A stretch of DNA of 64,000 nucleotides from Blasia pusilla (lineage: Eukaryota). Below are positions 17,801-39,895 of the stretch, piece after piece. Position 1 is the first letter of the stretch. The number at the start of each line of letters is the position of its first letter. The translations under genes and the position numbers were made by a program. Below the pieces are notes generated by a model. That model had not been told where the DNA came from. It saw only the letters and a list, made by a program, of their open reading frames with translations, and ran no database searches. The stretch is taken from assembly GCA_050084515.1 (NCBI GenBank), contig CM114271.1, positions 19,778,001-19,842,000 of the forward strand. Reading direction: 5' to 3'.

Positions 17801-18107
17801 CTATGTGAAGGACGATCAGTTCTTTGAATACTCGATGCACAAGTTGAGCCAAATGACTTTTTTTCTTTAAAGATGGAAAATGCAGCCTTGTAGCCTCCTT
17901 TCAAATTTGACAATTTTCAGGTCTGACGTAGATCAAGATCAAACGAGGAAAAAAGTGATTTATCTTCAAACAACTCACCTCCCCATCCATCAGCTTGCTG
18001 AAGAAACGCTCTGCTTGGGCAGCCGAAACATCACCACGGTAATCTCGCCATACTAAAACTCGACCCTTCATGTCCAACAGAAACACTGCGGACGCAGCAC
18101 CCGTCAT
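14842..18107 (-). CDS. AP1M: AP-1 adaptor complex medium (mu) subunit, multi-exon (exon 1 18107-17979, exon 2 17752-17606, last exon 14940-14842)
   Basis: [81 protein letters not shown] and C-terminal [26 protein letters not shown] junctions. Confidence 0.95.
15117..15182 (-). pseudogene. trnD: tRNA-Asp(GUC) pseudogene, organellar/bacterial type, 5' acceptor strand lost, in the last AP1M intron
   Basis: Minus strand reads TAGCTTAGTGGTTTATAGCACTTGTCT-GTC-AAGCCAGAATCGCGGGTTCAAATCCCGTTTTTCCCG: D-arm, GTC anticodon loop, GGTTCAAATCC T-loop. Upstream GATTAAT cannot pair with TTTTCCC. Confidence 0.75.
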
Positions 18108-21100: not shown

Positions 21101-22619
21101 TTCCCTCATTCAACTTTCCATCAGAAATTGAAGACCCAAGGAGATCGACACACCAGGGGAGAGATCGGGAGAGATACCCTTGGACTTCTTGGGATGTTTT
21201 GCAGGTATACCAGGAGATGATAGCCACAGCATCGAGTGAGGTTATGGGCACTGCATGTGGAGGAGATCAGAGTTTGCAGTTGGTTGTAGGAGAGCGGCCA
21301 AGTGTTGGTGTTCGAGACGGGGTTGCACCATAGCAACCATCGATACCCGTGTCGGAGAGTCCTACCATAGTCACGATGGAGACTTGGGAGCCAGATATGG
21401 ACCCTAAGTTGACAGGAGAAGAGCGGCGCCGGATACATCAGTTCCTTAGGAGTTATAAGAGCTGCTTTGTGTTTAGCATGGAGGATTTGGGTACTGTGAA
21501 AGGACCAGGATCCGCATTGAGTTGTCGAGTGATACGCCGATCTTCCGAGACCCTACAGGTACAGTGATATGGAGAGGGCTCTGATTCATAGTAAGAGCCA
21601 AGACTTGGTTGGAGCAGGACTAGTGGAGATGTCGCATATGCATGGGGAGTATGCATCTGCCACTGTCATGTCTGCCAAGAAGGATGTGTATGGCAACTAG
21701 ACGGATAGGCGAATGTGTGGGGATTACCCGCCTATCAATCGACATACGAAGTCTGATAGGTATGCCATGCCCACTCCCGAGGAGATCTTTGATGCGATTG
21801 GTCTAGCAAAGGTCTTTAGTTCATTTGATTTGCGAGCCGGATACCATCAGCTGCCTATCAGATTGGAGGATAGGCAAAAGACGACATTTTGGGGCATCGA
21901 TTCTCACGGGAAGGATTGTTTGTACCAGTGGCGGTTCTTACCATTTGGGTTAAGGAACGCCCTGGATGAGTTTCAAAGGGTCATGGATAGAATCTTGGCA
22001 TGTTTGGATTTTGCTAGGTGTTATATTGATGATATTTTAGTCTTTAGTGCCACAGTTGAAGAGCATGAGCGAGATCTAGAGGAGGTATTTCGACGATTGT
22101 AGTTACATGGGCTGAAGCTACATCTAGGCAAGTGTAAGTTCTTCTCCGACCAAATTGAGAACTTGGGTCATACAATATACCCAGGTGGCCTTGGTGTTCT
22201 ACAGACGAAGGTAGAGGCTATTTCACGCATTCCACGCCCTAAAGATGTAAGCCGTGTTTGTGCATTCATGGGATTGGCGAACTTCTATCGTCGGTACGTC
22301 AAGGGATTCATTTTGATTGCGAAGCCATTAACCTTGCTGACCAAGGTGGATCATGAGTGGCAGTGCGGGGATGAGCAGGAGCGAGCATTTCAGCTGCTCA
22401 AGGACATATAGACGTCCGCGCCCATCTTGAGGAGATCGATCAAGGGGCGTCCTTTCCAATTGCACACAGATTGGAGCATGTTGGGGCTTGGAGTGGTGCT
22501 CACCCAACATGATGATGAGGGTTGAGAGTTCGTGGTGACTTACGCTAGCCGTTCGAGCAACGTTGTAGAGGCGAGGCACAACTCGTATGAGGGTGAGTGT
22601 TTGGTTGCGGTGTGGACTG

Positions 22620-22985
22620 TGTCATGACCATACGGATTATGTCGTAGAGTATAGTGTGCTAGTAGAGGACATTCCTTATGTAGGACCGTAGTGGCTTGGT
22701 AGAGATGCGGTTCCATACATAGGGTTGGGGGTTACTCAGTTGGGGGTGAGTTTCCCAGTAGGGCCCGCTCTTAGGTTGGAGGATATAAGGTGGAGTGCAT
22801 TCAAAGAACAGTCAGTTCTTTGAGTTGAGCCTGTTGCGTTGGGAGTTAGCCTTGGTAGTGAGTAGAGCTCTTGGCTATGGTGTTTCCCGCAAGCTTCGAC
22901 CTGGATTCTCCCATCGTGGAGTGGGTTTGGCTCGATTGTATGTGATTGTAAACGTGTTTTATGACAGTAGGTCTTTCACGGATTT
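22620..22985 (+). repeat. Element B repeat A1 (direct copy of A2 at 31580-31947), contains a TATA box at 22784
   Basis: Near-identical from tgtcatgaccatacgg to ctttcacggattt in both copies. Confidence 0.92.
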
Positions 22986-22986
22986 C

Positions 22987-22999
22987 ACTCAAAGAACTG
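22987..22999 (+). promoter_or_regulatory. Putative self-priming primer-binding site of element B
   Basis: actcaaagaactg, just after A1, is the exact reverse complement of cagttctttgagt (22813-22825), which starts ~29 nt after TATAA. No TGG-type tRNA PBS is present. Confidence 0.7.
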
Positions 23000-24358
23000 G
23001 AGTAGATCGATGGTAGCTTCGATTGTAGATCAGTAGGATCTGGTTAGGGTTGATTGTGTACTCAACGGTGGATGTTCGGGGCTTTTTTCCTATGTTGGAG
23101 GTGTGAATCAGGTGCGTGGTTGATTGGGAAAGAAGCGCCTTGCTGAGAGCTTTCCAACGCGCTGTAGATCGCCGGATTTCGTCCAGGGAGTTGGAAGTTA
23201 TCAAACATTGAAGATTCTGGTCGTGTTCGACAGTTTTCTGATGTGGAGAGCTTGGAGTGCGGAAGCTCTGTTGAAGTTCATCCAGATCGGGTGAGAGGTT
23301 CCTATTGCTACTTGTATTGTGATCTCATGTGAATACATGTGCTACATGTATTCACGGATTTCACTCAAAGAACTGGAGTAGATCGATGGTAGCTTCGATT
23401 GTAGATCAGTAGGATCTGGTTAGGGCTGATTGTGTACTCAGCCGTGGATGTTCGTGGCTTCGAGGCAACTCGTGGTAGCTCGGGGCGAGTGGGCGTGAGA
23501 GGCGGAGTAAGGAGCAAGGAGCAAGCAAGCAAGCTTGCTTGCTTGGGCGTGAGGCAATTTTTGCAGGATTTGGGATTTGAGTTTTGCATAATCGGTCACC
23601 CATCTTTGGGCTATTTCGCTGGAGGACGCTTAACTCGCTGAGTTCTTAATTATGCCCGGTGTCTGCATTGTTGTAGCTCATTTGGTCTTTGTTCGAGATG
23701 TGTTAGGCGCTTTATGCATCTCAGGTTTTTGTTGATGTACCTCTAGCGCATAGTACGGTGTAGCCTCTCCATGCAAGTGATATTTTCAGTGTCTTTGCGA
23801 GTTCGACTAGCACGTCATCGACCCTTGGCGGAGTAGCTATTGCGTTAGAATTGTGTGGTGGGTTTTGTGGATTCGGGGCACCACGTTTGGTGGATTGTGT
23901 TACCTTGATTTCCATTTGCGGTTGGAGGGTTGTCGTTGGACTTCACGTATCGGATCCCCTCCATCGTGCTTTTGCTTCTTGCGCGCCCATTGTTAGGGTT
24001 GACGCTGATTTCGAGTAGTGTTACTCCTGTGTGCTCGCGATAGTGAGGTGGAGTGATGACTAGTAGACCGTGGGAGGCTTCTGGTAGTGATGAGAGGTTA
24101 GATTGCCTACACCCATAGCTAGTAGAGCAACATCGACGTCACTTGGGTAATTTGGTGGTGGTGAGGCATCGGCGTTGGTCATCACGGAGCTGTCGGGTGG
24201 TCGGTTGGGGACCGTGGTGCGGACGGTGGTGGTTTCACACGGAGTGGATTTAGGTATCGGCTACCTTTTCCACTTCCGACGGTTGATGAAGAGGAGGACC
24301 AGGGTGTTCCAAACACCGAGTCTTCTACGTTGTTATCGAGTGTTGCAGCTCCATTGAT

Positions 24359-25654
24359 TTGGGACATGGACGGTGGATATGGGGCCATGAAGGCCCACGA
24401 CGATATTCGGGTGCAAAGTGGGCACCATTGAGTTGGAGGACTTCATGCGGGAGTTTGATACGTGGTGTGATATGCGATGATGTTGAACGCCACGTTGTTT
24501 ACACCCTTCTTGGCTTGGAAGGGGTTGTTTCAGCACTTGGAAGGACCACCCATGGATGATTACCATGAGTTTAGGAAGGACCATATTACTAAGATTGAGG
24601 CATGGAGACAATATTGGTCTCCAAGCTATGTGTCTATCACCCATGGTGGTATTGGTAGTAGTGCTCCTACTATGCCGGCCCGGCCCGGCGTTGAGTGGTA
24701 CGAGTACGAGCCGGAGTGGGGATACCAGTGGAGGTACTAGTGGGGGTACTAGTGGAGGTACTAGTGGAGGTACTAGTGCCCCACCATCGTTCAGCCCGGT
24801 TGCAGAGTTCTTCAAGAGGTTGAAGAAGAACTATCAGGGAGTGAAGACGGAGAAGTTGAGGAATCTTCAGGACTTTGAGCGAAAGACTGGTGAGAGTCTT
24901 TGTGAGGCATACACTCAGTATCACGCTTGATTTCGATTACCAGGGTGTGTGACCGAGGATCAAGTAGTCCGATTTTGGCACGGGATCTTGGACAGAGATT
25001 TGCGCCGTAGGGTACGTGATGCTACTCTTATGAGTGATGATTCACCCACATTGACCCATGTGTTTGCTTTATCTGAGAAGATTGAGCTTAACATGGTGAA
25101 GGAGAGAGTGGTGACATCCGCATTCAGTAGGGATACAACTACTACTTCTCGGGTTCAGCCGCCCACCTCACAGTCTCGTAGTAGTGGTGGTGGTAGTAGT
25201 AGTGGGAGTCGTGGGGGGTACATGCGACCTCAGTCAAGTCGTAGAGGGACATTTGTGCAGAGACCATTGCCTTCATTTGCTGCCCCGCAGCAAGGACAGT
25301 CATGTTGGACATGTGGAGGTGATAATGTTAGGAAGTTTTGTCCCCAAGAGGATGGGAGACAGACTTTGGAGGATGGGCCTCGATCGGCCCCAACTCGGTG
25401 TGATCATTGCGGAGACTAGGTCATCCTCGAGAGCGTTGCTTTGATCTCCATCCGAGTTGAGATCAGGCCGAGGCCGTGGTGGAGTAGCTCCGAGAGGCCG
25501 AGGTGGTAGAGGTGGTAGGGGTGGTAGAGGTGGACCCGGTGGTTGGAGAGCCTACGGTGGCTACCCCTACCACTACGACAAGTCGACTATGGTGCTGCCA
25601 AGATTGAGCTTGATTAGAGCGAGAGTTGGCTACTATGGTGGTATCCAAAGATAG
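24359..25654 (+). pseudogene. Element B gag (frameshifted), with zinc knuckles and an RGG-rich tail
   Basis: FERKTGESLCEAY, CWTCGG..C, CDHCG and RGGRGGRGG; 12-bp tandem repeats encoding GGTS at ~24720-24778; homologous to the element C gag. Confidence 0.75.
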
Positions 25655-26269
25655 ATCAGTTCGGGAGCAGGGGCTTCCACCTCTTATGGAGGGGATGATC
25701 TCTCTTATATGGCGAAAAGACAAAGTTGAGGCATCGGTGCGATTCTGAGAGGAGCCACTCGGCGTCGAGCCACGTGGTGCTCTTGTGGAGTTGGACCCAC
25801 AGAGGGGTGAGGGCCGGGAGGCGGCTAGGCTTCCCGGTCATTCTTGTTGTCGAGGTGCTTAGGACTCCATCCATGGTTCCTCACGAGCCTATTGAGCCGA
25901 CAGTGGGGATCGAGGCATCTACATCGCGTGTAGTAGACACGGATGCAAAGATCAATGCGATTGTGCGGATGGCAACCGGTGTTGGGATCCCCATTGTTTT
26001 CGCCACGGAGCTTATGGCTTTAGGAGTTGACTTAGCTCCTGTATTTGATTAGCGACCACGTTGTGTGAACGTGGGGTGTTATTCTTGCTACACGTGTTGA
26101 GGTGGATGATGGTGTTGCGGTGGAGCGACCCTCTATGTCGAGTAGCATTGAGTACGGTGCTACTTGGCGTGCAAAGAATGGGCGAAGATGGATGCATTAC
26201 CAGCCCGGCCAACCATTGATCGTGAGAGGCTTACACTGGTGTATGTATGTTGGACAACCGAGTGGGATC

Positions 26270-26660
26270 TTCCGATTGGTGAGTCCCAGACAGGACAGTG
26301 TATAGACCAGATAGAGACTTGTTAGACTCGGTGCCCAACCTTTGATGTTGGGAAAGGCGCATGTATTGGTTTGGGTATTCGGAGGTCGAGCTTGAGCCTT
26401 GCCCATTCCGATTCAAACATCACTTGGAGGAGCCAATGATAGGTCTCAATTCATGACACGGGAAAAGTTTTCTATCTGATTGAGACCAGATCATGCGATC
26501 GATAGCTCCCGGTTGGGAGTATCTGCGGTAGTCACATCACCGAGTCGTATGATGTACTAGTTGGAGGAGCGATGTGTACCCGATGGGTTTTCAGATGGAT
26601 TCTTGGATCGAGAGGCGTCTTCTGAGACCTGGTTGGCAGTCCGGGATGGACGTATGAGCC
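26270..26660 (+). pseudogene. Element B aspartic protease (frameshifted)
   Basis: LLDS-GAQPLMLGK and ESYDVLVG match the element C protease RVLLDSGAQPLMLGK. Confidence 0.65.
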
Positions 26661-27039
26661 AAGTTCTGTGAGATTTATTTCTGGGGCTCGACCAGGAGGG
26701 TCTTCCCCAACAAGTGTTAGCATCTGGCTGGTTTTAGTGGAGTAGTCACTTGGCCGAGAGACTTTTTGAGGGTAATGTTTCTTCTATGGATTCTCTGCGC
26801 ATGAGGAGGTAGAGGAGGTCCCTATTTTTTTTTGCTGCAGTGGCATCCTCATCGTTGGATGTGCCACTTTGGAGTTCAAAGCGGTGCACTACGGCAGAGG
26901 CTCATCGCCTAGTGCAAGAGGCTTGGTGTGAGGTGTTATACCTCACGAGAAAGAGGAGGCCCCACGGCGGACTCCTACAGTCGGTCCAGATTAGGTTATC
27001 CCCTTTGGATACTACACCCATTGTATGGCAAGTATCCGC

Positions 27040-27990
27040 GGAGGGTATTTGTGTGTTAGATCTCTTTGGTGGGATTAGCACTGGTTTGGTCTGCAGATGT
27101 TGCGGGCCGGTATTCTGTCTTGGAGATACGTGTATGTGGAGCGAGATGAGACGGCCAAGAGAGTCTCATCTCGACATACTAGTCAGTTGATGCGGAGATA
27201 CCCTGAGTTGTTGCCGCCATCAGCTATTCGTGGGTACCAGCGTGCTTTACCATCACACATTGCATTGTTGGGGGCGCAGGACCTTGAGAGGGTTGGTCCT
27301 GTGGATTTGGTGATTGTTGGATGGCCATGTCGGGTCATACACGTCTTTGGTCGTGGTGAGGGATTACATGACCCTAGGTCTCGATTGTTTTGGGAGATCT
27401 TACGGGTGTTACGACATCTTGAGTTCATCAGCACACGTGCTCTAGCTTACATTCTGGAGAATGTTCCATTGTTGGGTGACACTCGGACCCGGATGATGGC
27501 GAGTGTTCATGAGGTGCGCTCTTAGATTGGACCAGAGGTGTTGTTGGATGCAATGCGAGTTGGCTCGCGTGCACATCGTCCACGCTTGTGGTGGACAAAC
27601 TTGTTGCCTATGGAGGTTCTACGTCGAGCATATGATGCAGTGCAGCGGGATCCTCGCCTTATAGTGGATAGTATCTTGGATACTGGGCGACTTTCTCAAG
27701 TGGTGAGGGTTATTGATCGGTCACCCATGGCAGTGGTGAACCGTGTGGGCCAGCCTAGGATGGCACTACCCACATTTGTGAGTTTTCCTCGTCACATGCC
27801 TACTGAGGAAGGTGGTCCGGGGCTTGTATGGGATTCTCATGTGCGACGGCAGTTGGTGGAGCCTAACGCGATGAGAGAGAGCGTGCGATGGGATTTGCTC
27901 TTGGTGTGTGGCGGTTGCTTCTATTTCTCAAGCTTCACGACGTCATGTGTTGGGTCAGCCATGGACCTGAATTGTTTGACTTGGATTTTG
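27040..27990 (+). pseudogene. DNA cytosine-5 methyltransferase domain (DNMT3-like) within the element B pol, frameshifted
   Basis: Motif I VLDLFGGISTG, II YVERDE, IV VDLVIVGWPC, V GLHDPRSRLFWE, VI YILENV, VIII LDA..GSRAHRPRLWWTN, and IX/X-like EPNA..ER..MGF and AMD, in canonical order. Confidence 0.9.
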
Positions 27991-28299
27991 AGTCTTGGTA
28001 TGGGCGGCAGCGTCGACTTCGGACTATGTCGTGGGTCTTCCACCCTTGTAATGAGCTCGATGGCTAGGGGACAGTAGAGGCATCGGTGGGGCGAGGAGAG
28101 TAGTATTTTGCATCCTTGGAGTAAATGGGATGTAATGGCTCGGCATGTGGAGTTGGTTGCTCATCTTTGGTGGAAGAGTTATTTGCTCGAGATGATGGTG
28201 TAGCTAAGGGTGTACCATCTTGTGAGGGGGTTATGTAGTGACCAATGGCATCGTCCTCTCCCTCTAGTGTGACAAGTGGAGGAGACTTGGGAGCCATTA

Positions 28300-29680
28300 C
28301 TTGGGCCCAAGCTTACGGGAGGTGAGAAACGACGCTGACACACGGTTCCTACGTGCTTATAGGAGTTGTTTTGCCTTTAGCATGAAGGAGTTGGGTTCTC
28401 TGGTTGGACCCGGTATACGGATTGATTTGGCTAGTGATACGCCAATCTTCCGTCTTCCCTACCGATATAGTGATATGGAGAGGGACTTGATTGAGTAGGA
28501 CGTTGGACCTTTTGGAGGCTGGATTAGTGGAGTTGTCGCATGGAGAGTATGCATCGCCCACGGTCATGCTCGCTAAAAGGATATGCATGGAAACTACGGA
28601 TAGGCGGATGTGTGGAGATTACCGTCCTATCAATCGGCAAACCAAGGCGGATAGGTATGCCATGCCTACACTGAGAGATCTTTGATGTGGTGGGACAGCA
28701 AAGATTTTCGATGCTTTGGATCTTGGCAGATACCATCAATTGCCGATTCGGGAGAGTGACAAGGCCAAGACAACATTTTGGGGTGTCAACTCTCATGGCA
28801 AGGATTGTTTGTACCAGTGGAAATTCTTACCCTTTGGGTTGAAGAATGCACCTGCCGAGTTTCAAAGAGTGATGGACAGGATCCTAGCAGGGTTGGATTT
28901 TGTTCGGTGTTACATTGATGATATCTTGGTGTTCAGTAACACGGTGTTTGAGCGGTTGAAAGTTCATGGTCTACGTTTGCATCCTGGAAAGTGTAAGTTC
29001 TTCCATGAGGATGTTGAGTACTTGGGTCATGTGATCTATCCAGGTGGTTTGGGAGTTCAGCAAGCAAAGGTGGAGGCTATTGCACTTATTCCGCGTCCGA
29101 TAGATGTGAGTAGAGTTCGAGCATTCATGGGATTGGCGAACTACTATCGGAGGTATGTGAAGGGATTTAGTGCTATGGCAAAGCCTTTGAACCAATTGCT
29201 GAAATCAGATCAAGAGTGGCACTGGGGAGATGATCAGGAGAGAGCTTTTGTGGAGCTTAAGGCCCAGTTGGTGGCGGCGCCTATCTTGAGGAGACCTATC
29301 GAGGGCGCCCATTTCGATTACACATCGATTGGAGTAGGTTGGGACTTGGAGCGGTGTTGACACAACATGATGATGAGCACAAGGAGTTTGTGGTGGCCTA
29401 TGCAAGTCGTTCGAATAATGCAAATGAGTCGCGCTATAGTTCATATGAGGGAGAGTGCTTGGCAAGAGTGTGTGGGTTGTGGTCCACTTTAGGTGTTACT
29501 TGTTTGGCACCGGTTTACCCTTGTTCTCGATCACCAACCGCTCAAGTGGTTGATGGAGTCGGACAAGCTTACAGGGAAGCTTGCACGGTGGGCTCTTATC
29601 TTACAGGAGTATGACTTCCAGGTGGTACATAGACCTGGAGTTGCCAACCTTGATGGTGATGGGTTGAGTAGGAACCCATG
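28300..29680 (+). pseudogene. Element B reverse transcriptase and RNase H
   Basis: RMCGDYRPIN, LPFGLKNAPAEFQRVMD, YIDDILVF, YLGHVI, FMGLANYYRRYV, VAYASRS, DHQPLKWL, RWALILQEYDF. Confidence 0.92.
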
Positions 29681-30059
29681 TACTAGCCAAGAGGATACAA
29701 CAAGGGCTAGATGGCATGGCGAGGTTGATGAGGAGATGGTGCCAGGTTGGCATGCATCCGCCTTTTTATGTTGGTTAGGGGTGGACTCTAGTATGGAGGA
29801 CCACATGATATCTTACTCTAGTCAGAGGGTAGATGGCCAGCCTTCAGATCCTAAGGTTGGAGATGGTGGTACGGATCAGCGTGATATTCATGATGATGCG
29901 TTGGAGTTCCTACGGACCGGTAGGGTGCCAGGCATAGTGAGTGCCAAGGAGCGAGACCGTGTTCTTCAACGTGCTAAGAGGTATCGATTGGAGGGAACAC
30001 ATATTCTCCGCGTGTGGGAGGATGGTAGAGTACGAGTAGTGCCACATTTGGCTCAGAGA

Positions 30060-31298
30060 GAGCGCATTGTGCGACATGCCCATGAGAAGTTGGGACATTT
30101 TGGGGTAAAGCGTACGTATAGCTTACTCCTTGGCCAATATTGGTGGCGTGGCATGCATACTCAGGTGCAGCAGTTGGTGTCACGTTGTATCGTTTGTGAC
30201 CGGGTGAGGGCATCATTTAATGCCCCACACCACAATTACACCCCTTGCCTATTATGGGGTTGGGTTACCCTTGGAATGTGGACTTTGCGGGACCGTTAAC
30301 GTTGACTGTACGACATCATCGATATGTGTTGGTGATGGTGGAGCACTTCTCCAAGTGGATTGAGTTGGTGGCATTACCGGACAAGGCGAGTGAGGGAACG
30401 GCGTATGCGTTTCGGGATAGAGTGCTTAGTCATTTTGGTGCACCAGCTGAAGTGCTCACCGATCGAGTCTGAGTTTCAGGGTGAGTTTCGGTCTTGTGTG
30501 ACAAGGCGTTGATTGATCATCGGACCACGTCTCGAGATCATCCAGAGGCGGATGGTTTGGCTGGCGTGTGGTTCACACGGTGAAGAGGGCATTGCGCAAG
30601 TATGGCCTCTGAAGGGGCATCTTGGAGACCAGGATATTCGGTTGCCATGGTTAGCCATGGGGTATAGGTTGATCGCCAAGCATCCTTGGCTTCCTTCTCA
30701 CCTTATTTTCTGTTATACGGCCGAGATCCGGACTTGCCAGCAAAGAATTGTCGGGAGTCTAGTGAGGTGGTGAACCTTGATGACCCAGAGATGTGGATGA
30801 GGGTGTGTTCTCGAGCGGAGCTCTTTCGAGAGTTATGCCAATGACCTTTGAGAATCTTGCCATTGCTCAACACAGGGGATACGTTGCGGTATGCAACCAT
30901 TCGAGGTGGAGGTTATCGACCATCGATTGTAGGTTCCATGTGGGGACTATGTCTATTTGCAGCAGATTGCCCCAACAACGTTGGATGACGGCAGCCGCAC
31001 TATTTAACGAGTGCGCGAGGTGTTAGCTTCGGAGTTCTCATGTTGGAGGGTCGTGATGGAGTTGTTTGGAAGGACCATGTGCGTAATTGTGCGCCATGTC
31101 ATCTTCCAAATGTGGATGGTCTTGTTGACCCAAGCTTAGCCATGATACATGCTAGCTTGAGGTGCATGTTGTGTGGGTGCGGTAACGCGCCCGTATGTTG
31201 GTGTGTGATCGGTGTTCTAGGGGTTGGCATATGATGTGTTTGACTCCACGTTTGGATGTCGTTCCTACTGGAAGGTGGGTTTGTCCTCGATGTACTTA
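30060..31298 (+). pseudogene. Element B DDE integrase with HHCC zinc domain and C-terminal PHD finger
   Basis: HEKLGHFG..CIVC, VDFAGP, VEHFSKWIE, VLTDR, then LRCMLCG and a frameshifted PHD remainder at 31160-31298. Confidence 0.85.
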
Positions 31299-31460
31299 GG
31301 AGAGGTAGATGACTTGATCTTTGCATGATATGGATTACAGATGTGCGACTAACGATGGGGCAACCTAGCACCCGGCCTTCTGATTCGGGCACTCAAGAAG
31401 GTGTATAGCATGTAGTAGATGTATAGGACTACCTGGGAGTTAGAGGACCTAACCGCTTGA

Positions 31461-32055
31461 TTAGGGGGCGAGTTGTGGTACACTTGCGTTTGTGGATACT
31501 CTCGTCTATGTTATGTACGTATGTGAGTATGGTATGTCAGCGATGTATGTTGTATGAGGATGTGGATTCGCACGACAGCTGTCATGACCATACGGATTAT
31601 GTCGTAGAGTATAGTGTGCTAGTAGAGGACATTCCTTATGTAGGACCGTAGTGGCTTGGTAGAGATGCGGTTCCATACATAGGGTTGGGGGTTACTCAGT
31701 TGGGGTGAGTTTCCCAAGAGGGGCCCGCTCTTAGGTTGGAGGATATAAGGTGGAGTGCACTCAAAGAACGATCAGTTCTTTGAGTTGAGCCTGCTATGCG
31801 TTGGGAGTTAGCCTTGGTAGTGAGTAGAGCTCTTGGCTATGGTGTTTCCCGCAAGCTTTGACCTGGATTCTCCCATCGTGGAGTGGGTTTGGCTCGATTG
31901 TATGTGATTATAAACGTGTTTTATGACAGTAGGTCTTTCACGGATTTTAGTTGTGGTACACTTGCGTTTGTGGATACTCTCGTCTATGTTATGTACGTAT
32001 GTGAGTATGGTATATCAGCGATGTATGTTGTATGACGATGTGGATTCGCACGACA
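31461..32055 (+). repeat. Element B 3' module: PPT (31461-31470), B1 (31471-31577), GC spacer, A2 (31580-31947), B2 (31949-32055)
   Basis: B1 and B2 are 107-bp direct repeats (agttgtggtacac...cgcacgaca) on either side of A2. Confidence 0.92.
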
Positions 32056-33887
32056 ACTGTCACACATTTAAGGTGTTACTTATTCGGCAACCCCTTTACC
32101 ATCATCACTGATCATCAACCACTAAAGTGGTTGATGGAGTCCGACAAGCTTACATGGAAGCTTGCAAGATGGGCTTTGTTGCTGCAGGAGTACGATTTTC
32201 AGGTGGTACATAGACCTGGGACGCTCAACCAGGATGCAGATAGGCTGAGTCGTAACCCATGCCCGAGTCAACGAGATGCAACTAGAGCTCGATGGCATGG
32301 AGAGAGTGATGAGGAGTCAGTGTCAGGATGGCACGCGTCAGCCTACTTAGACTTGTTGGCTATGGAGAGCCAGAGTGTGGAGACTTTGATAGCGAGGTCT
32401 GATGGAGAGTCCTTGGATCCCGAGGCCAGTGAGGAGACGATAGGTGGCCGAGATATTCACGATGATGAAGTAGTCTTGGAGTATCTACGTACTGGCAGCG
32501 TTGCGAGCACAGTGGATGCTAGAGAGCGGGATCGGGTCCTTCACCGGGCTAGGTGGTTCCGCTGGGAGGGGACATATATGTTGCGAGTGTGGGAGGATGG
32601 TAGAGTGCGTGTAGTGCCTCATCCTTTGCAGATAGCACGTTTGGTGCATCATGCCCATGAGGAGTTGGGTCATTTTGGAGTGAAGCGGACATATAGCGTG
32701 CTCCAGATTCAATATTGGTGGCGAGGCATGCAGACTGATGTTCAGCAGTTTGTTGCCAGATGCATAGTGTGTGATTGAGTCCGAGCATTTTTCAATGCTC
32801 CAACTCCACAGTTGCATCCACTTCCGATCATTGTCGTGCGCATACATATCGCTACACACCATACATCGTTGGTCACATCTACACCACACAACACCAATCT
32901 TCCCCACACACGGGTCGATCCACACATGTACAAAAATGAACTCATACATATACATGGAGATCACACAACAAAAATAAAGAGTAGTAAAAACGGCACACCC
33001 GGCCTAAAACTCCACTCATCTACATCGGCATAACGAGCCTCATCCACCCTGTGCTATCAAGGAATCCGGACGCTAGCACCCTAGTCCTAGCTCACACACA
33101 TACAAGGGAGGTGCTCAACGGCCCAACATGAGAAAGATGGCTTAGGAAAGCCATCTTCCTCTCTTATATAGGGTTGGGAAGAGCCAAAAGGCTCTTCCCC
33201 TAAAAATAGCCCTCCCCTTGGTAACTTGCGCGCACAGGTTACCAAGGACGAGTGACCTGGTCAACAAGTCACCCGATTGTAAAAGAGCTCAACATGAAAG
33301 TTGTCAGAAACAACGTTTTTGACACAATGGACCTATCTTCAACCTCATCCGACACCGTGGGACAAAGTTACACTCAAGATAGTCCGCTGGCTCCTGCGCC
33401 CTATCCACAATAGATCTCGGCCTATCGGCTACTCAGATGTGACAGATTGTCGTGCACATACATATCGCTACACAACATACATCGCTAGTCACATCTACAC
33501 CACACAACACCTATCTTCCCCACACACAGATCGATCCACACATGTAAAAAATCAACTCATACATATACATGGAGATCACACAACCGCCCCCCTAGCTGGT
33601 AGTTGGATCCCCCCAACTCTAGATAGAAAATATCACATCTCTCTGACATGACCTACTACCCTATACACATCTCGGACACATCCATGATAAAAACATGACT
33701 CCACGCCTGCCTCACGAGGTCATCGGCACTCCTCTGTAGCTCCCGAGTCACACCCCACAATGGTGAAGAGGCCTCGCCAACATGGGAAGAGACACCCGCC
33801 ATGGCCTGTCTCTCCGTGGGACTATCCGCTATTGGGACATCCTCCGCATGTGCATTCCCCTCCAACAACTCTCCTAGCCAACTAACA

Positions 33888-36449
33888 CTACATGTGAAAG
33901 TTGCCAACGTGGTCACAAACTCGCCTCGTGATCGACCACCTCGTCCCGCAAACTGCATGGGGTAACTGACTCATCCGTATGTCACCTGACCGCCATCCTG
34001 GCCGATAAGCAACAGTCTCCTCCCAGAAGTCAAGGATGAATCCTAGGGGATATAACACTGTACTCCCCACCAACACATCGTACGACTCAGCTGGTGTAGT
34101 AATCGCACGTGTGCGCACCATAGCACTATCCGTCGCATGCTCTGGCTGGACTCTGACAACAATCTCCTATCAAGTCATATACTGAGTGGGTGATATGCCC
34201 CCAATCGAGGTCTGTATCTCGAAGGGACAAGGCTCAATGTCGGCCTTCCGTAACCCCAACGCTAAACACGCCGCCTTCCCTAACATCAAGGGTTGCGCTC
34301 CCGAATCAAGTAGGACGCGTTGCGGGTGGTATACTATCCTCGTCAAACTAACCAAGCGAAATACTCCAGCTCGGTTATCCAGTAACACTACTCCAGGTGT
34401 CACCCCTGCTCGCTCTATGGCCGGTCGAGCTGGCATATCTACCAACTTCGCCGCCGCCGCATGCCATGACTCTGTGGGGAACGTCCCAAGCACCGGCTCT
34501 GAGGGCAAGTCCACCACCTCCTGAACTACCTCTGAACAAGAAGCAGTCATCTCTCCATGCTCACACAATGTGGCGGCCAACCAGAACACCTTAGCTGGTC
34601 CAACTCCCAACGTTGCCAACTCTATGGCGGAAAATAGTGGAGTCTGACTCACTCTGGTGGCCACCTCCAACACTATGGTCGACACTGACTCCACTCGAGC
34701 CGGCATAGGAGTTAGTCACTCCAACTCCTCGTGACGTCGACGTAGGTGCTCGAATCAGAGGCACCGCTGATCGTCGAGGCACCATCGATGGTGTGTGTAG
34801 TGCCTCCAACAATGTGAACGAATGTGGAACCCTAGCCTGCCGCCCATCGGTCCCCTCTGGTGGGTCAATCTCAACTCCACCTCTCGATGGCTCGGTGCCT
34901 CTCGCAGCACCCGAGTCACCACTGCAGCTGCCTCAACCTCGGTTGCACTACACATAAATCCCATACTGGCGAGATCCTCACCCGGGTCAGGGTAAGAGGT
35001 AGAAGTTGGAGTCACACTAGCTGCTCGCCGCTCCGTGCCTTCCCTAAGCTGCATCATCGTCATGGCAGCAATCCTCTGCTCCAACTGATCCATGCGTGAG
35101 AGAAGTGCCGGCTCTGGTGCTCTTGCTCCATCTCCTCTGGCAAGTGGTGGTCCTCTACCACCAAGTCCAAGAAGAACTCCCCGACCTCCTCCAGAACGAC
35201 CGTCCCTAGGCCCTCGGCCTACCTCTAGACGTGCCCCTCGGCGAAGGTCAAAACATCTATCCCTAGTGTGACCATATATGTGGCAATGGTCACACTGGTG
35301 CTGTGGTGGGGCCATCCTCTGTGGCTCCTGAGCAATCGGAGGCGCTGGTGGTCCTCTCCCATATTGTGCGCAGTCTCTCTGCCTATGGGCCCCTCCACAC
35401 GTCCAACAAGACCACATCGGTCCCTGTTGGGCAACATATGTAGGTGCGGGTCGTTGCCTCAAAGGCTCATGGAACCCGCCCTGCTCTGTAGGCACATTGG
35501 CCCGCTCCCGTGGTACTGGTGCTCGCTGTGGCACCTGTGGGGTCACCGTCGCTCGTGGACCCATCGACTCTCGAGAAAATCCAGCGGTCACTACCTGCTC
35601 CTCACTCATGTTGAGCTCAATACGCTCATACAACTCAAAGACCACCTTCAATCTGGGCTTCGCTGTGTGAATCAGCACCGCATCTCGCACTCTCCTTCGT
35701 AGTTCTCGGTCCAGAACCCCGTACCAATACTGGACTGATTGCGCCTCAGTCACTCCAAAGGTAGCAATGATCAGCCTCCTCATGCATATGAATGCCTCTC
35801 TCAGACTCTCACCCGATCGTCGCTGAAAATCCTCTAGACTCTTCAGCTTGTCGGTGCGTACGCCCTGGTAGCTCTTCCCCAACTGTCGGAAGAACTCCAC
35901 TGTGGGGTTGAAGCTGGGTGGCCCTCTACCACCAGAGATCTCTGCCACATCGCCTATCTCACTGCCCTCCTCTCCATCTAGTCTCCGAGCTAATGGTGTG
36001 GGTCTCTCTCCTCTCACAATCCCATCATATGCCTCGCGACCACTAGTGGACACATATCCTGGAGCCCAATACATCCTCCAGGCATCGATCTCTACTGAAT
36101 ATAGTGATCGAAACTCCATGTAGTCATCCATCGGAGGACCCTCCAAGTGCTAGAACAACCCCTTCCATGCCATGAAAGGGTTGAACCGTGTCGGGATCCG
36201 TATCTCTTGGAAGTCGCACCATGTGTCGAACTCTTGGATAAAATCATCTAAGTCGATGGTGCCCACTGCACCCCGAGAAATGACGCATGCCCCGATGGCC
36301 CATGTCGTCCATCTCTTGCCAAGTACTATTGTCTCATGCGTGATCTCATCACGGACCGGTGTCGATGATGACGATCGATCCGCCACGGATGGATGTCGAG
36401 GGAGCTCCTTTCTGGTAACCCCTCGGTATCTCACTCCACTCCGTGTCAC
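33888..36449 (-). pseudogene. Element C gag-protease (interrupted)
   Basis: 463-aa ORF with CWTCGGAHRQRDC and CDHCHIYGHTRDRC knuckles; RVLLDSGAQPLMLG protease motif. Confidence 0.82.
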
Positions 36450-37421
36450 ACCACTACTACTGCTCGCACTACCCCGTTCTTCCGAACCCTGGAAGAATTC
36501 CGTGATGACAAACCCTGTCTCACCCGCTCAAGCACTCAAACTCACCGAGAGTCTCCCACACGCCTCACTAGCTCACCTATGCTACCATCAATCCCATGAT
36601 GACATACCCGGCCTCACGCACGCTTAACACTCGGGCTCACCATGAGCCTCCCAACTGACTCACCTAACCTAGCGACACTCTCTCGGGTCATACACGCGAC
36701 CCCTACTTGGCAACTGCCGTATATCCACCAACATGCTACACATGAAAAGAATCTACACTCGTCACCATCACTGCACCCATCTAGCACCAGCTACTACCTG
36801 ATACCCATCACTCTCAATCACACACGACAAGTGCGGGAAAAGGGACTCGAATGGGTAACCTGATCACGCCCTCCAACGTGCTGCACCGTCAACATGCACT
36901 CCTCCACATGATATGACAATCTCCGCAACACAACACTCTCCTCGACGAACACGTCGATCCTCCCGTCAATAGATACGGACAACCCGTCGGCGCGTTTAGG
37001 GTCCGCGCCCGTCGCCGCCCGTCAGCGCCCGTTATCGCCCGTTGTCGCCCGTCCGCCGCCCGTCGCCACCCGTTGGCTCCCGTCCGTCGCCCCTCGCCCG
37101 TCACTGCCGCGCCCTAACCCTAGACCAACCGCGACCTAGCTAGCCATCTTTACTTAACAGCCCCCCCCGGACGGCTGCAAGACCCAAACCTTCTTTTCTT
37201 CTCTCACTCACGTACACCCGACGCCCACTTCGTACTACACTCTGCCGCTGTCCCCAATCCTTGTGCACCAACAAAATCTGAGAAAAACGGACAGCTCTTC
37301 CGCCCACGGCCTTCCGAACAGAAAAATGAAAAACACCCGCAACACACGCGTCTCTTGGGGCTCCTGACCAAGGCAACTCGCTTGCCTACCTGCAAACAAT
37401 GAATTCCCACCAGCCCCCTGA

Positions 37422-37435
37422 CATCTTTCTCATGT
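37422..37435 (-). promoter_or_regulatory. Putative self-priming primer-binding site of element C
   Basis: The 14 nt abutting A1 are the exact inverse complement of 37597-37610, which starts ~31 nt after the minus-strand TATATAA (37641-37635). Confidence 0.7.
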
Positions 37436-39895
37436 AAAAATAAAGATTAGTAAAAACGGCACACCCGGCCTAAAACTCCACTCCTCAATCTACATCGGCA
37501 TATTGAGCCTCGTCCACCCTATGCTATCAAGGAATCCGGACGCTAGCACCCTAGTCCTAGCTCACACACATATAAGGGAGGTGCTCCAACGGCCCAACAT
37601 GAGAAAGATGGCTTAGGAAAGCCATCTTCCTCTCTTATATAGGGTTGGGAAGAGACAAAAGGCTCTTCCCCTAAAAAAAGCCCTCCCCTTGGTAACCTAC
37701 GCGCACAGGTTACTAGGGGCGGGTGACCTGGTCGACAAGTCACCCGGTTGTAAAAGACCTCAACATGAAAGTTGTTATAAACGACATTCCTAACACAATG
37801 GACCTATCTTCAACCTCATCCGACACCGTGGGACAAAGTTACACTCAAGATAGTCCGCTGGCTCCTACGCCCTATCCACGATAGATCTCGGCCTATCGGC
37901 TACTCAGATGTGACATCATGGGTTTAGGTTATAGATGGAGTTTGGATTTTGCAGTACCTTTGCCTTTGACAAAGCGCCATAGTTGTTATGTGTTGGTGAT
38001 GGTCGAGCACTTCTCGAAGTGGATAGAGTTGGTTGCATTGCCTGACAAAGAGAGTGAGGGAGTAGCATATGCCTTCCTAGATCAAGTGCTTAGTGATTAC
38101 GGCGTACCAGCTGAGGTGTTGACAGACCAGGGTACAGAGTTCCGCGGGGAGTTTCAGGCCTTGTGTGATCAGGCACTGATCGACCACCTCACTACTTCGC
38201 GAGATCATCTTGAGGAGGATGGACTAGCGGAGCGGGATGTGCAGACGGTGAAGAGAGGACTACGCAAGTATGGCTTGTAGAGAGGTCACCTAAGAGATTG
38301 GGACCTTCAGTTTCTGTGGTTGGCGATGGGATATAGATTCAGCACGCAGGCATCCTTAGCGTCTTTCTCACCGTACTTGTTGCTTTATGGCGGTGAGCCA
38401 GATTTACCTGCGGCCATTCGTCGAGATACTGGTGAGGTGTTGAATCTTGATGACCCTGATGTATGGATGCGAGCATGTTCTGAGAGGGCTGAGTTGTTTC
38501 GAGAGAGTGATGCCCATGGCGTTTGAGAACTTGGAGATTACGCATCATCGGGATACGTTGAGGTATGTGACCATTCGGGAGGTGGTTATCGACCTACTAT
38601 CCGGAGGTTTCATCAAGGAGACTATGTCTACTTGCAACAGACGGCACCCACGACGTTGGATGTGACTACAGGGCGCACCATCTTGAGAGTGCGTGAGGGT
38701 TTGCCATCCGGTGTTCTCTTATTGGAGGGACACGATGGTATTGTTTGGAAGGACCATGTGTGTAATTGTGCGCCATGTCATCTTCCAAACATTGACAGTA
38801 CAGTTGATCCGAGCTTAGCAATAGTTCGTGCAGGCTTGAGGTGTATGTTGTGTGGTTCCGCCCGTGGTGTAGCCACTATGCTAGTCTGTGATGGATGTTC
38901 GAGAGGATGGCATATGGCATGTTTGACGCCACCTCTCACTAGGGTTCCTCGGGGACGATGGATGTATTCGAGATGTATTTAGAGTAGGTAGATCTACATT
39001 CCGACTTGTGTCTGTGACATGGATGACTAGAAGGCGACTAACAATGGGGCCACATGAGCACCCGGCCTTCTTGCTCTTAACGTCTGAGAGATGTATGTCA
39101 TGGTAGGTAGGGATAGATGGCTATTTGGAGTTAGAGGGACCTAACCACCAACTAGGGGGGGCGATTGGAGATATTTTGGTACTTCTTGTCTCGTTGTTTG
39201 GATGCCATGAGTTAGCATGGGATCGTGTGTGTTTGTGTGTGTGTTCGGTGACAACGATGTATGTTGTGTAGCGATGTGTATGCGCACGACAATTGTCACG
39301 TCTCTTAGGATAGATCGGTGAGATCTAGTAGAGCACCTTTGTGAGTAATGGAAGACAGGCTTAGTAGGTCGAGGATGACCAATTGAGGCACCGAGAAACT
39401 TGAGAGAGCAGGTTTTCCCTTCGTTTCAGCTCATTTGGAGCCATATTGAGGAACTTATTATTTTAGGTAAGTACCATTCTGAGTATGTGATCAAAATTCT
39501 ATTATTGGTAAATGGCCCTTGACCTCCTACATCAGGTCAAGAGCCAAGGAGATGACTTGGGAGCATAGGTTACCATGGAGAGAGCTTGGGAGAGGGGAGG
39601 GATATACCTCAAGGAGAGAGAGCTTGAGAGCTCTATGGTCGTTTCTCTTGTGAGTGTAATCCAAGCCTCTCATTAGGAGAGTGGGTTTGGTTTGACATGA
39701 GAGAGAGTGCACACCTTTGAGAGCTATGGTGTGAGATGGTGTAGAGAGAGATTAGATCTTATTTCAATTCGAAATATTTTGGTACTTCTTGTCTCGTTGT
39801 TTGGATGCCATGAGTTAGCATGGAAATCGTGTGTGTTTGTGTGTGTGTTCGGTAACAACGATGTATGTTGTGTAGCGAGGTGTATGCGCACGACA

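Follow-up and report, generated by a model that had tools for sequence, protein, structure and literature searches.

Permuted A-internal-B-A-B repeats in Ty3/gypsy-type retrotransposons of Blasia pusilla and a possible route to their formation

The window analyzed here, a stretch of 64,000 nucleotides of Blasia pusilla DNA (contig CM114271.1), raises the question of how retrotransposons with Ty3/gypsy domains come to lie between repeats that are not two identical LTRs. Two of its elements, B and C, are confirmed as real Ty3/gypsy retrotransposons with the layout A1-internal-B1-A2-B2, and a third, element A, keeps B1-A2-B2; the repeats lie where an earlier note on this DNA had placed them. The short TSD (target site duplication) of 4-5 bp usual in Ty3/gypsy elements is present, and the two identical TG...CA LTRs are absent, the 5' end being module A alone and the 3' end B-A-B. 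In all three elements module A begins with TGTCA and module B finishes with GCACGACA, and the A and B sequences are unrelated from one element to another. The TG and CA are located at the A start and the B end, with the primer binding site (PBS) after A1 and a G tract before B1.

Element B (22620-32055, plus strand) is flanked by ACTG at 22616..22619, a duplication also supported by empty-site contigs, and at 32056..32059. Its A1 module (22620..22986, the end being 22985 or 22986) begins with TGTCATG, carries a TATA-like box at 22784-22789 and a putative RNA 5' end and self-primer at 22813-22825, and would act as U3-R-U5; it is followed by a putative PBS at 22987..22999, whose 13 nt are complementary to 22813-22825. 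The internal part consists of a gag remnant (24552..25410, 61% identity to a Marchantia CCHC/gag protein, P0001), a degenerate C5 cytosine methyltransferase (DNMT) domain located 5' of RT (27097..28002, with a PF00145 match at 27079-27522, 4.3e-07), and a pol with RT, RNase H, H2C2 zinc domain, rve (DDE) core and PHD finger (28271..31293), interrupted by numerous stops and frameshifts. The G-rich polypurine-like tract TAGGGGGCG (31462..31470) stops at the first base of B1 (31471..31577), which terminates in GCACGACA; then come the spacer 'gc' (31578-31579), A2 (31580..31948, or to 31947) and B2 (31949..32055), the right insertion end. A1 and A2 are 96.7% identical, and B1 and B2 97.4%. The final base of A2 is T at 31948 and C in most family copies (T>C, 14981/19644 of the depth in run X1), and the extra T at A2|B2 is the mutated last base of A. 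Also, two contigs of run X11 fuse the left flank of element B straight to its right flank, as a paralogous empty site.

Element C (37915-32832, minus strand) is bordered by ATGA at 32828-32831 and 37916-37919, so that the clean 4-bp duplications claimed for elements B and C are both exact. Its A1 (37436..37915) carries a TATATAAG box and a putative self-primer at 37610-37597, to which the 14 nt of a putative PBS at 37422..37435 are complementary. A gag ORF (34911..36131) lies inside a 464-aa open frame at 34758-36149; no pol was found in this element, which is therefore non-autonomous. The tract TAGGGGGGCG (33593-33585) precedes B1 (33448..33584), and after the spacer 'atc' come A2 (32970..33444) and B2 (32832..32969). 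The A copies are 93.5% alike and the B copies 93.6%.

Both elements are nested in element A (plus strand), whose pol frame resumes across the two inserts: part 1 at 21343..22619 (P0018 residues 1-431), part 2 at 32060..32827 (residues about 429-701) and part 3, from the integrase core to the PHD finger, at 37920..38976 (residues 678-1030). Over the homologous part, element B is colinear with this pol. Because of the nesting and of the empty-site contigs, the element boundaries are fixed independently. The 3' end of element A (39153..39895) comprises the tract TAGGGGGGGCG (39153-39163) directly before B1 (39164-39291), the spacer 'at', A2 (39294-39766) and B2 (39767-39895), with B1 and B2 95.4% identical. 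Neither gag nor A1 of element A was found upstream within the window. The set thus includes an autonomous type with a DNMT (B), a gag-only non-autonomous element (C) and a 5'-truncated host copy (A).

The coding content is that of Ty3/gypsy elements with a DDE integrase, as the earlier note had it. The domains RVT_1, RT_RNaseH, Integrase_H2C2, rve, PHD and DNA_methylase were found, and the pol order RT - RNase H - integrase, with H2C2 and DDE core, holds for the window and for relatives. In the family alignment D688 and D748 are invariant and E783 is present in at least 90%, with D-35-E spacing. The best relative of solved structure is Ty3 Gag-Pol (7q5b, 4e-97), and the integrase part of the family pol matches the PFV integrase (2e-20). 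The absence of a tyrosine recombinase noticed earlier was borne out: Phage_integrase (PF00589) gave no match in 115 window ORFs of at least 65 aa (both strands, 20000-40000), where decayed copies limit sensitivity, none among 108 ORFs taken from six related elements, and none in 5 full pol proteins of relatives. Protease families had no match in the 115 ORFs of these degenerate copies, and among the 108 ORFs of the six related elements two aspartyl protease families matched 3 and 2 ORFs, respectively. Gag is present in the window as the element B remnant and the element C ORF. The DNMT was seen in element B only, none being shown in elements A and C, and most relatives sharing the repeat layout are without it. 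The predicted gene set of the clade is gag, PR, sometimes a DNMT, RT, RNase H, DDE integrase and PHD finger.

The permuted layout is not new, and the claim that it had never been described has to be withdrawn, since it is once in print for algal relatives: KnitGypsy-Dnmt3 of Klebsormidium nitens was reported with DIRS-type repeats and Gypsy domains (de Mendoza et al., 2018, Nat Commun 9:1341, PMC5890265, Fig. 4c legend). The main text of that account gives no explanation of the layout, and no TSD, primer sites or mechanism. KnitGypsy-Dnmt3 resembles element B in its Gypsy pol with a Dnmt3-like C5 methyltransferase 5' of RT, and the window elements in its A-coding-B-A-B repeats. The RNase H-integrase stretch of the window is 42-44% identical to two K. 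nitens proteins, of which P0040 (DNMT-RT-RH-IN, 42%) has the domain order of element B. On pairwise protein identity and layout, the window elements probably belong to a green-lineage clade containing KnitGypsy-Dnmt3. The latter differs in its algal host, whereas the window pol is nearest to liverwort proteins (by name, Calypogeia 75%, Riccia 66%, and Marchantia up to 88% over short stretches). New here are the self-primer site, the G tract at B1, the exact A2|B2 fusion and the locus layouts in metagenomes.

Among 64 related metagenome loci, 23 have B-A-B and 18 end in a single B, while B-A-B occurs in none of 8 distant ordinary Gypsy loci. As the layout recurs in 23 independent loci and in many contigs (32,874 contigs cover the element family in run X1), it is neither chance nor an assembly artefact, which also disposes of the worry that B2 might be one. 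In each of the three window elements, the G-rich TAGGGGG(G)CG ends right where B1 begins, and a G-run or TAGGGGGCG tract abuts B1 in the 7 full metagenome loci inspected (7/7). Window elements B and C have exact 4-bp TSDs, as have L016, L024, L003 and L050; three of four bases match in L004, L010, L033 and L035 and two of four in L008, and no clear TSD was seen in L017 and L043. Every copy examined is old and degenerate.

In 8 of 9 elements, the A2|B2 junction joins the base that precedes the PBS to the one that follows the G tract, the exception being L035, with 2 nt missing; no indel was found at 31940-31955 in the family contigs. This agrees exactly with a fusion of the predicted cDNA ends, as had been proposed, and the end-joining heterogeneity that the earlier note expected at this place turned out to be low. 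Both B modules are renewed in each cycle. No class-specific difference separates B1 from B2 in 206 columns, identity is 0.861 across classes and 0.860 within a class (permutation 1497/2000), and the B1/B2 pair within one element is the most alike (0.893); a single template per cycle therefore serves both.

Directly behind A1 lies a sequence that can pair with a site in A, over 13 nt in element B and 14 nt in element C, this site lying 29-31 nt past the start of the TATA box, and a third, unrelated A sequence shows 11-16 nt of complementarity in metagenome relatives. The observed length was matched by 0-1 of 120 control windows (1/120 for element B, where the sole control reaching 13 nt is an internal duplicate, and 0/120 for element C). 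Under a strict definition, at least 9 nt with at most 5 of 100 controls, a self-primer was found in 9 of 19 relatives and not in the other 10, possibly because of decay of the copies. Also, the MFE and centroid folds pair the putative primer and PBS bases in elements B and C. The complementarity is strong and covaries across unrelated A sequences. From its distance to the TATA box, we infer that the RNA starts at the predicted site in A. Self-priming of this kind is on record for Tf1/Sushi, and a prediction of it exists for the Tcn1 clade of mosses (Neumann et al., 2019, PMC6317226). There too the RNA of the element itself, and not a tRNA, pairs by its first bases with a site behind the 5' repeat; Tf1/sushi and Tcn1 differ in having ordinary identical LTRs and a chromodomain, whereas the window elements have permuted repeats and a PHD finger. 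The self-primer, the G tract at B1, the A2|B2 fusion and the locus layouts all make B+A the LTR of reverse transcription, which upholds the reading of the primer positions in the earlier note and adds to it a Tf1-like self-primer after A1. In L011, A2 halts at its canonical last base and is followed by unrelated DNA, which is how the end of a linear cDNA should look if it had been captured.

As had been pointed out, the att-like ends abut inside the element, TG and CA being separated by a 2-3 nt spacer. Their position suggests that the integrase cuts inside the LTR and not at the DNA ends, integration probably using an internal ...ACA-NN-TGT... junction. The best overall explanation, which we hold to be about as probable as its negation, is a self-primed B+A cDNA that is cut at this junction and closed by end joining, giving A-internal-B-A-B. 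Transcription would start about 30 nt past the TATA box within A1, and the transcript, folding back, would pair over its initial 13-14 nt with the site right after A1 and prime the minus strand in a Tf1-like manner. The G-rich tract right before B1 would prime the plus strand, and standard strand transfers would then yield a linear cDNA, B-A-internal-B-A, with blunt termini (B start and A end) lacking the TG/CA ends of an integrase substrate. At B|A inside each LTR, ...GACA and TGTCA... would abut with 2-3 nt between them; the integrase would cut and use the upstream LTR's junction, and the true cDNA termini (A end and B start) would be united by end joining, either before the cut, as a 2-LTR circle, or after insertion of both halves, as break repair. 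The outcome would be A-internal-B-A-B with a 4-bp duplication. Cutting at both junctions, or before LTR duplication, would lead to a common dead-end product, A-internal-B; the single-B loci could instead be plain B1-B2 deletions, and a comparison of ages gave divergences of 0.083 vs 0.093 (p = 0.14). The A|B junction, exact in 8 of 9 cases, is tidier than typical end joining. Also, the missing A-B-A-internal-B calls for an asymmetry (e.g., the upstream LTR becoming double-stranded first) or for a quick collapse by A-A recombination.

The free 2-LTR circle of the earlier note is plausible; in its simple form, end-joined B-A-internal-B-A opened at random at either B|A junction, it is rather unlikely in our judgment. 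It gives precisely A-internal-B-A-B, makes A2|B2 the fused predicted cDNA ends and renews B1 and B2 together; moreover, retroviral integrases cleave 2-LTR junctions, the palindromic LTR-LTR junction being cut by the integrases of PFV (Delelis, 2005, PMC1180852) and HIV-1 (Delelis, 2007, PMC1905944). In these retroviruses, a DDE integrase cuts back-to-back ...CA/TG... internally and so produces processed ends, in circles only and as a side route, whereas in the window family the junction is built into every LTR by primer placement, and no other att site seems to be usable. However, because the B|A junction occurs twice and in identical form in such a circle, both permutations are expected in equal numbers, and of the 20 loci in which an A module lies upstream 11 were complete A-internal-B-A-B and none was A-B-A-internal-B, a class that could be masked if A-B-A rapidly collapsed to A. 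The circle also predicts solo A-B insertions, of which none was seen, a weak point as the loci were picked by pol. The earlier interpretation is thus partly supported, its simple symmetric circle predicting a product unseen in the loci examined.

Direct synthesis of a linear A-internal-B-A-B cDNA by unconventional priming and template switching, with the integrase acting on true ends, seems to us unlikely. For example, a second plus-strand primer could lie at B|A and the plus strand could jump from the A end to a B template; reverse transcriptases do switch templates at ends. This would explain the single permutation seen, the uniform A|B junction and the ordinary TSDs. Nevertheless, the B end has no purine-rich tract and is not followed by a primer site, the positions of the self-primer and of the conserved G tract mark the start of B and the end of A as the termini, and no concrete route leads to a minus-strand 5' end at the B end.

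More doubtful still is a DIRS/PAT-like pathway, in which the RNA would run from within A1 to within B2, B1-A2 would serve as bridge or template to close a circle, B2 and A2|B2 would be inherited from the parent, and the DDE integrase would just replace the tyrosine recombinase. The repeat layout is identical to that of PAT/Ngaro/SymbioDIRS, the split direct repeats A1-internal-B1-A2-B2 being shared with PAT-like, Ngaro and some DIRS elements, and in the model of Goodwin and Poulter the internal B1|A2 junction reportedly mirrors the joined ends of the circle. One 408-nt contig spans A2 into B2, but that its run is RNA is a guess, and contigs are no proof of transcription. This pathway leaves the positions of the self-primer and of the G tract without a role, and nothing indicates that B1 and B2 are inherited separately. 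Also, PAT, Ngaro and DIRS elements encode a tyrosine recombinase, and are not known to encode a DDE integrase or to make a TSD, whereas the window elements, in which no tyrosine recombinase was found, have an rve integrase, a conserved DDE triad and 4-bp TSDs, in addition to the G-rich tract and the self-primer site.

Finally, that ordinary LTR elements, all of them now old and degenerate, were altered after insertion (B duplication, unequal recombination) or were mis-assembled has next to no chance of being right and is for practical purposes refuted by the recurrence of layout, junctions and TSDs, as three window elements with unrelated modules have one layout, the 23 independent loci share the tract|B and A|B junctions with TSDs outside A1/B2, thousands of contigs from independent runs agree, and the Klebsormidium layout was reported independently (PMC5890265).

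For the reading that we prefer, a self-primed B+A cDNA cut at its internal junction, a further parallel may be drawn with bacterial insertion sequences by analogy. The likeness would lie in logic alone, as IS3/IS30 are DNA transposons without reverse transcription. In these insertion sequences, a circle with abutted ends and a 2-3 bp spacer forms the active DDE junction.

The end repeats of the three Ty3/gypsy elements, of which B (plus strand) and C (minus strand) are nested in element A (plus strand), are built from two modules, also called A and B, with a single A (A1) at the 5′ end and B1-A2-B2 at the 3′ end. In element B, A1 lies at 22620-22986, B1 at 31471-31577, A2 at 31580-31948 and B2 at 31949-32055, with the spacer gc between B1 and A2; the A copies are 96.7% identical and the B copies 97.4%. 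On the minus strand, element C shows A1 at 37915-37436, B1 at 33584-33448, the spacer atc, A2 at 33444-32970 and B2 at 32969-32832 (copies about 93.5% identical). Element A, whose 5′ portion upstream of ~21340 is absent from the window, keeps on the plus strand B1 at 39164-39291, the spacer at, A2 at 39294-39766 and B2 at 39767-39895 (95.4%). Both the repeat search and the window self-blastn reproduced the repeats in the positions claimed for them by the earlier note. On reading the sequence of the three window elements, in each of them module A starts with TGTCA, module B ends with GCACGACA, and the G tract TAGGGGG(G)CG stops precisely where B1 begins. The 4-bp target site duplications (TSDs) described as clean for elements B and C proved exact (ACTG and ATGA, respectively). 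Both elements were inserted in the pol of element A, which is colinear with that of element B (self-blastn) and whose reading spans both insertions (residues 1-431, 429-701 and 678-1030 of P0018, the related protein used as pol reference). Also, two contigs of sequencing run X11 connect the left flank of element B directly to its right flank, with a single copy of the duplicated site. The insertion limits are thus fixed independently by the nesting and by the empty-site contigs. The repeats were correctly observed, and the observation holds robustly.

At 32056-32063, the target sequence of element B is ACTGTCAC, so that the ...GACA end of B2 is followed by ac-TGTCAC, in imitation of the B|A junction inside the element itself. 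It reflects either coincidence or target preference; the target of element C shows no such junction-like sequence.

Element B carries, on the plus strand, the remains of gag at 24552-25410, followed at 27097-28002 by a domain of the C5 cytosine methyltransferase type (PF00145, 4.3e-07) and at 28271-31293 by a pol comprising RVT_1, RT_RNaseH, Integrase_H2C2, rve and PHD domains, all broken by stops and frameshifts. The coding content of element C is limited to a 464-aa gag frame, and this element is non-autonomous. Neither a tyrosine recombinase nor a protease matched any of 115 stop-to-stop ORFs (at least 65 aa, both strands, 20000-40000), and no tyrosine recombinase was matched among 108 ORFs of six related metagenome elements. 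Aspartyl protease families do match among these 108 ORFs, and the idea of a clade without protease was therefore dropped. The D, D-35-E residues of the integrase are kept in an alignment of 12 full relatives, the closest solved protein is Ty3 Gag-Pol (4e-97), and the integrase part matches foamy-virus integrase. Domain content, catalytic residues, solved-protein matches and the lack of a tyrosine recombinase therefore identify Ty3/gypsy elements with a retroviral-type integrase, as had been proposed. In this clade, the integrase ends in a PHD finger where chromoviruses have a chromodomain. The PHD part matches the histone-reader PHD fingers of CHD4, PHF12 and UHRF1, a likeness which hints at possible chromatin-guided targeting.

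In its RNase H-integrase frame, element B shares 75% identity with a protein of Calypogeia fissa, 66% with one of Riccia and, over short stretches, up to 88% with Marchantia proteins. Two proteins of Klebsormidium nitens match this frame at 42-44% identity, and P0040, one of the two, has the order DNMT-RT-RH-IN. The PHD finger is terminal in most relatives and DNMT is found in some. P0066, a protein of one metagenome relative, carries its DNMT domain between RNase H and integrase and not upstream of RT, which suggests more than one DNMT acquisition or a rearrangement inside the clade.

The earlier note knew of no description of this layout for LTR retrotransposons. This is contradicted by the KnitGypsy-Dnmt3 element of K. 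nitens, for which the legend of Fig. 4c reports DIRS-type repeats together with a Gypsy domain composition (de Mendoza et al., 2018; PMC5890265); the same paper gives the arrangement of dinoflagellate DIRS elements as A-coding region-B-A-B. Its main-text account of KnitGypsy-Dnmt3 gives no TSDs, primer sites or mechanism (PMC5890265). No other Gypsy elements with split direct repeats were found in the literature beyond that paper, subscription journals, Repbase reports and supplements lying outside the search, and the mechanism behind the layout is apparently unaddressed in the searchable literature. We rate the window elements as further members of a described but unexplained kind. As the layout has been in print since 2018, at least in that legend, the value lies in the mechanism, a question of high interest. 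Dictyostelium DGLT-A, considered as an element with modular A-B/B-C LTRs, was not borne out by PMC5006619, where the modular element is TRE5-A.

Metagenome contigs scanned with the family alignment yielded 80 loci, divided by best-segment identity to P0018 into 64 close (at least 39%) and 16 far (at most 34%) loci, and the close ones were module-mapped using a collection of known A and B sequences. After pol, the 3′ end is B-A-B in 23 of the 64 (with L039 and L056 apparently the same insertion), B-A in 4 (2 cut by the contig end; B2 only 18 nt long in L061 and absent in L011), a single B followed by unrelated DNA in 18 (with three likely duplicate pairs), another partial form in 2, and devoid of modules in 17, mostly contigs ending in or just past pol. 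Complete A-pol-B-A-B was seen in 11 close loci and complete A-pol-B in 4, two of the latter with exact TSDs, TACA (L003) and TTTT (L050). None of the 20 loci having an A module upstream of pol shows a B or a second A there. Among far loci, none of the 8 with at least 1200 nt downstream has a B pair, and one (L037) has ordinary LTRs. The layout is thus a trait of the clade. Of 9 elements, 8 have a B|A spacer of 2 nt, and that of element C is 3 nt long. The expectation that TSDs flank the A1 start and the B2 end held exactly in two complete A-internal-B-A-B loci (L016, L024) and partly elsewhere, with 3 of 4 bases in L004, L010, L033 and L035 and 2 of 4 in L008, the scored loci having 8-20% repeat divergence. 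Elements of this clade are very abundant in the Blasia genome and common in bryophyte-like metagenome contigs, and standard LTR finders will mis-call them.

In element B, the 13 nt after A1 (22987-22999) are exactly complementary to 22813-22825, a site within A1 that lies 29 nt past the first base of a TATA-like box. The 14 nt after A1 of element C are complementary to a site 31 nt past TATATAAG, and the main metagenome subfamily has a third, unrelated sequence with 11-16 nt of complementarity, 31 nt past TATAAAAGG. Of 120 control windows (25 nt each, taken inside the element), 0-1 attained the observed length, and the only one to do so was the duplicate copy of this site within element B. Self-primer sites, defined as an exact match of at least 9 nt attained by at most 5 of 100 controls, were found in 9 of 19 metagenome elements, the remainder being decayed. 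In folds of the RNA spanning the predicted start and the primer binding site (PBS), the complementary bases pair in the MFE and the centroid structure alike, and no tRNA-type PBS was evident by eye after A1 of elements B and C. From its sequence, this complementarity is a signature of predicted Tf1-type self-priming, matching a process that is documented in Tf1/Sushi elements and has been predicted for those of the moss Tcn1 clade (Neumann et al., 2019). The G-rich tract likewise adjoins B1 in all 7 metagenome loci inspected. With standard strand transfers, a self-primer site after A1 and a G tract at B1 predict a linear cDNA B-A-internal-B-A, whose predicted ends in element B, AGTTGTGG... and ...GGATTTC, are without TG/CA. 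The proposal that B+A is the true, replicative LTR is strengthened by these two predicted landmarks. Element B also contains a 110-nt direct duplication (22975-23084 and 23351-23460, 96% identity) which starts 11-12 nt before the A1 end and includes the PBS, and thus has two PBS copies, 376 nt apart. It could be a template-switch footprint, and was not seen in element C.

In 8 of the 9 elements, the A2|B2 junction links exactly the base preceding the primer site with the one following the G tract; in L035 it is short by 2 nt. The end-joining heterogeneity anticipated at this junction is therefore low. The apparent extra T at the A2 end of element B results from mutation of the last base of A, at which family contigs mostly carry C (14981/19644 depth in run X1; all depth in runs X4 and X11). 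The same bases occur in other contexts, with the PBS after the A end in 32 X1 contigs and the G tract before the B start in 3 X4 contigs. The contig indel table holds no indels at the junction; one X1 contig has lost 39 nt and has 7 letters inserted, the loss ending precisely where B starts. B1 and B2 gave no sign of descending separately, as 0 of 206 columns were class-specific in 17 elements and cross-class identities equaled same-class ones. Since, in addition, within-element pairs were the most alike (0.893 vs. 0.861; 17 elements), both copies must be taken from one template in each cycle, in an LTR-like manner.

In the standard view, LTR retrotransposons and retroviruses integrate linear cDNA via its two ends, and the junctions between LTRs in circles lead nowhere or at best serve as a reserve. 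Here, primer sites and integrase ends are out of register, and the ordinary linear-end route therefore cannot work. The integrase ends would instead be placed back to back within the LTR, at the B|A junction. For the live integrated form, the upstream LTR would be cut at its B|A junction and the true cDNA termini joined to each other, possibly after insertion of the two halves, as chromosome-break repair. The data fit this mechanism, which is in its general form the idea of the earlier note, and the proposed cut resembles the cleavage of LTR-LTR palindromes reported for retroviral integrases (HIV-1, PMC1905944; foamy virus, PMC1180852).

A free 2-LTR circle might alternatively be opened at random at either of two equivalent B|A junctions. 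The absence of the A-B-A-internal-B class from all 20 loci with an upstream A argues against such random opening, but could be explained by fast A-A recombination, collapsing that class to the abundant A-internal-B. One of the two is required, either this fast collapse or an asymmetric process. Under the upstream cut, asymmetry could come from the order of strand displacement: the upstream LTR would become double-stranded before the downstream one, so its B|A junction would be available first. A cut still earlier, at the strong-stop stage, would give A-internal-B. The single-B copies (L003, L017, L019, L022, L028, L032, L036, L041-L045, L050, L058, L060, L068, L074, L076) could be this second integration product or B1-B2 deletions. 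They are not older than the B-A-B copies (0.083 vs. 0.093, p = 0.14; no significant difference in a weak test), and thus need not be deletion products. In L011 (13198-13496), A2 ends at its canonical last base and unrelated DNA comes next, B2 being absent from the 2.9 kb that remain; this single case looks like a captured linear cDNA end.

We consider it an even bet that this is a green-lineage Ty3/gypsy clade in which the integrase ends have moved inside the LTR, the finished linear cDNA is no integration substrate, and every productive insertion needs an internal palindromic junction cut plus cDNA-terminus joining by the cell or the element. If so, integration by a retroviral-type DDE integrase would be obligately of a 'circle-junction' type. 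The clade would be a natural system with junction cleavage as the main route, and the old question of whether circle junctions are integration substrates in vivo would become directly testable. As its repeat layout is common to the tyrosine-recombinase retroelements DIRS/PAT, the clade might also represent a stepping stone linking LTR elements with that group; the layout may have arisen twice or may mark a transition.

Between 20000 and 40000, we also observed a strong strand-specific GC skew, which is about +0.25 along the strand that codes for elements A and B and negative across the minus-strand element C, the coding strand of the elements being G-rich and C-poor. A 1.9-kb inverted repeat pair (17762-19672 and 56985-58907; 96% identity, 37 kb apart) is unrelated to elements A-C. 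Finally, two 307-nt copies (61189-61495 and 61536-61842; 99.7% identity, 347 nt apart) form a tandem-like duplication.
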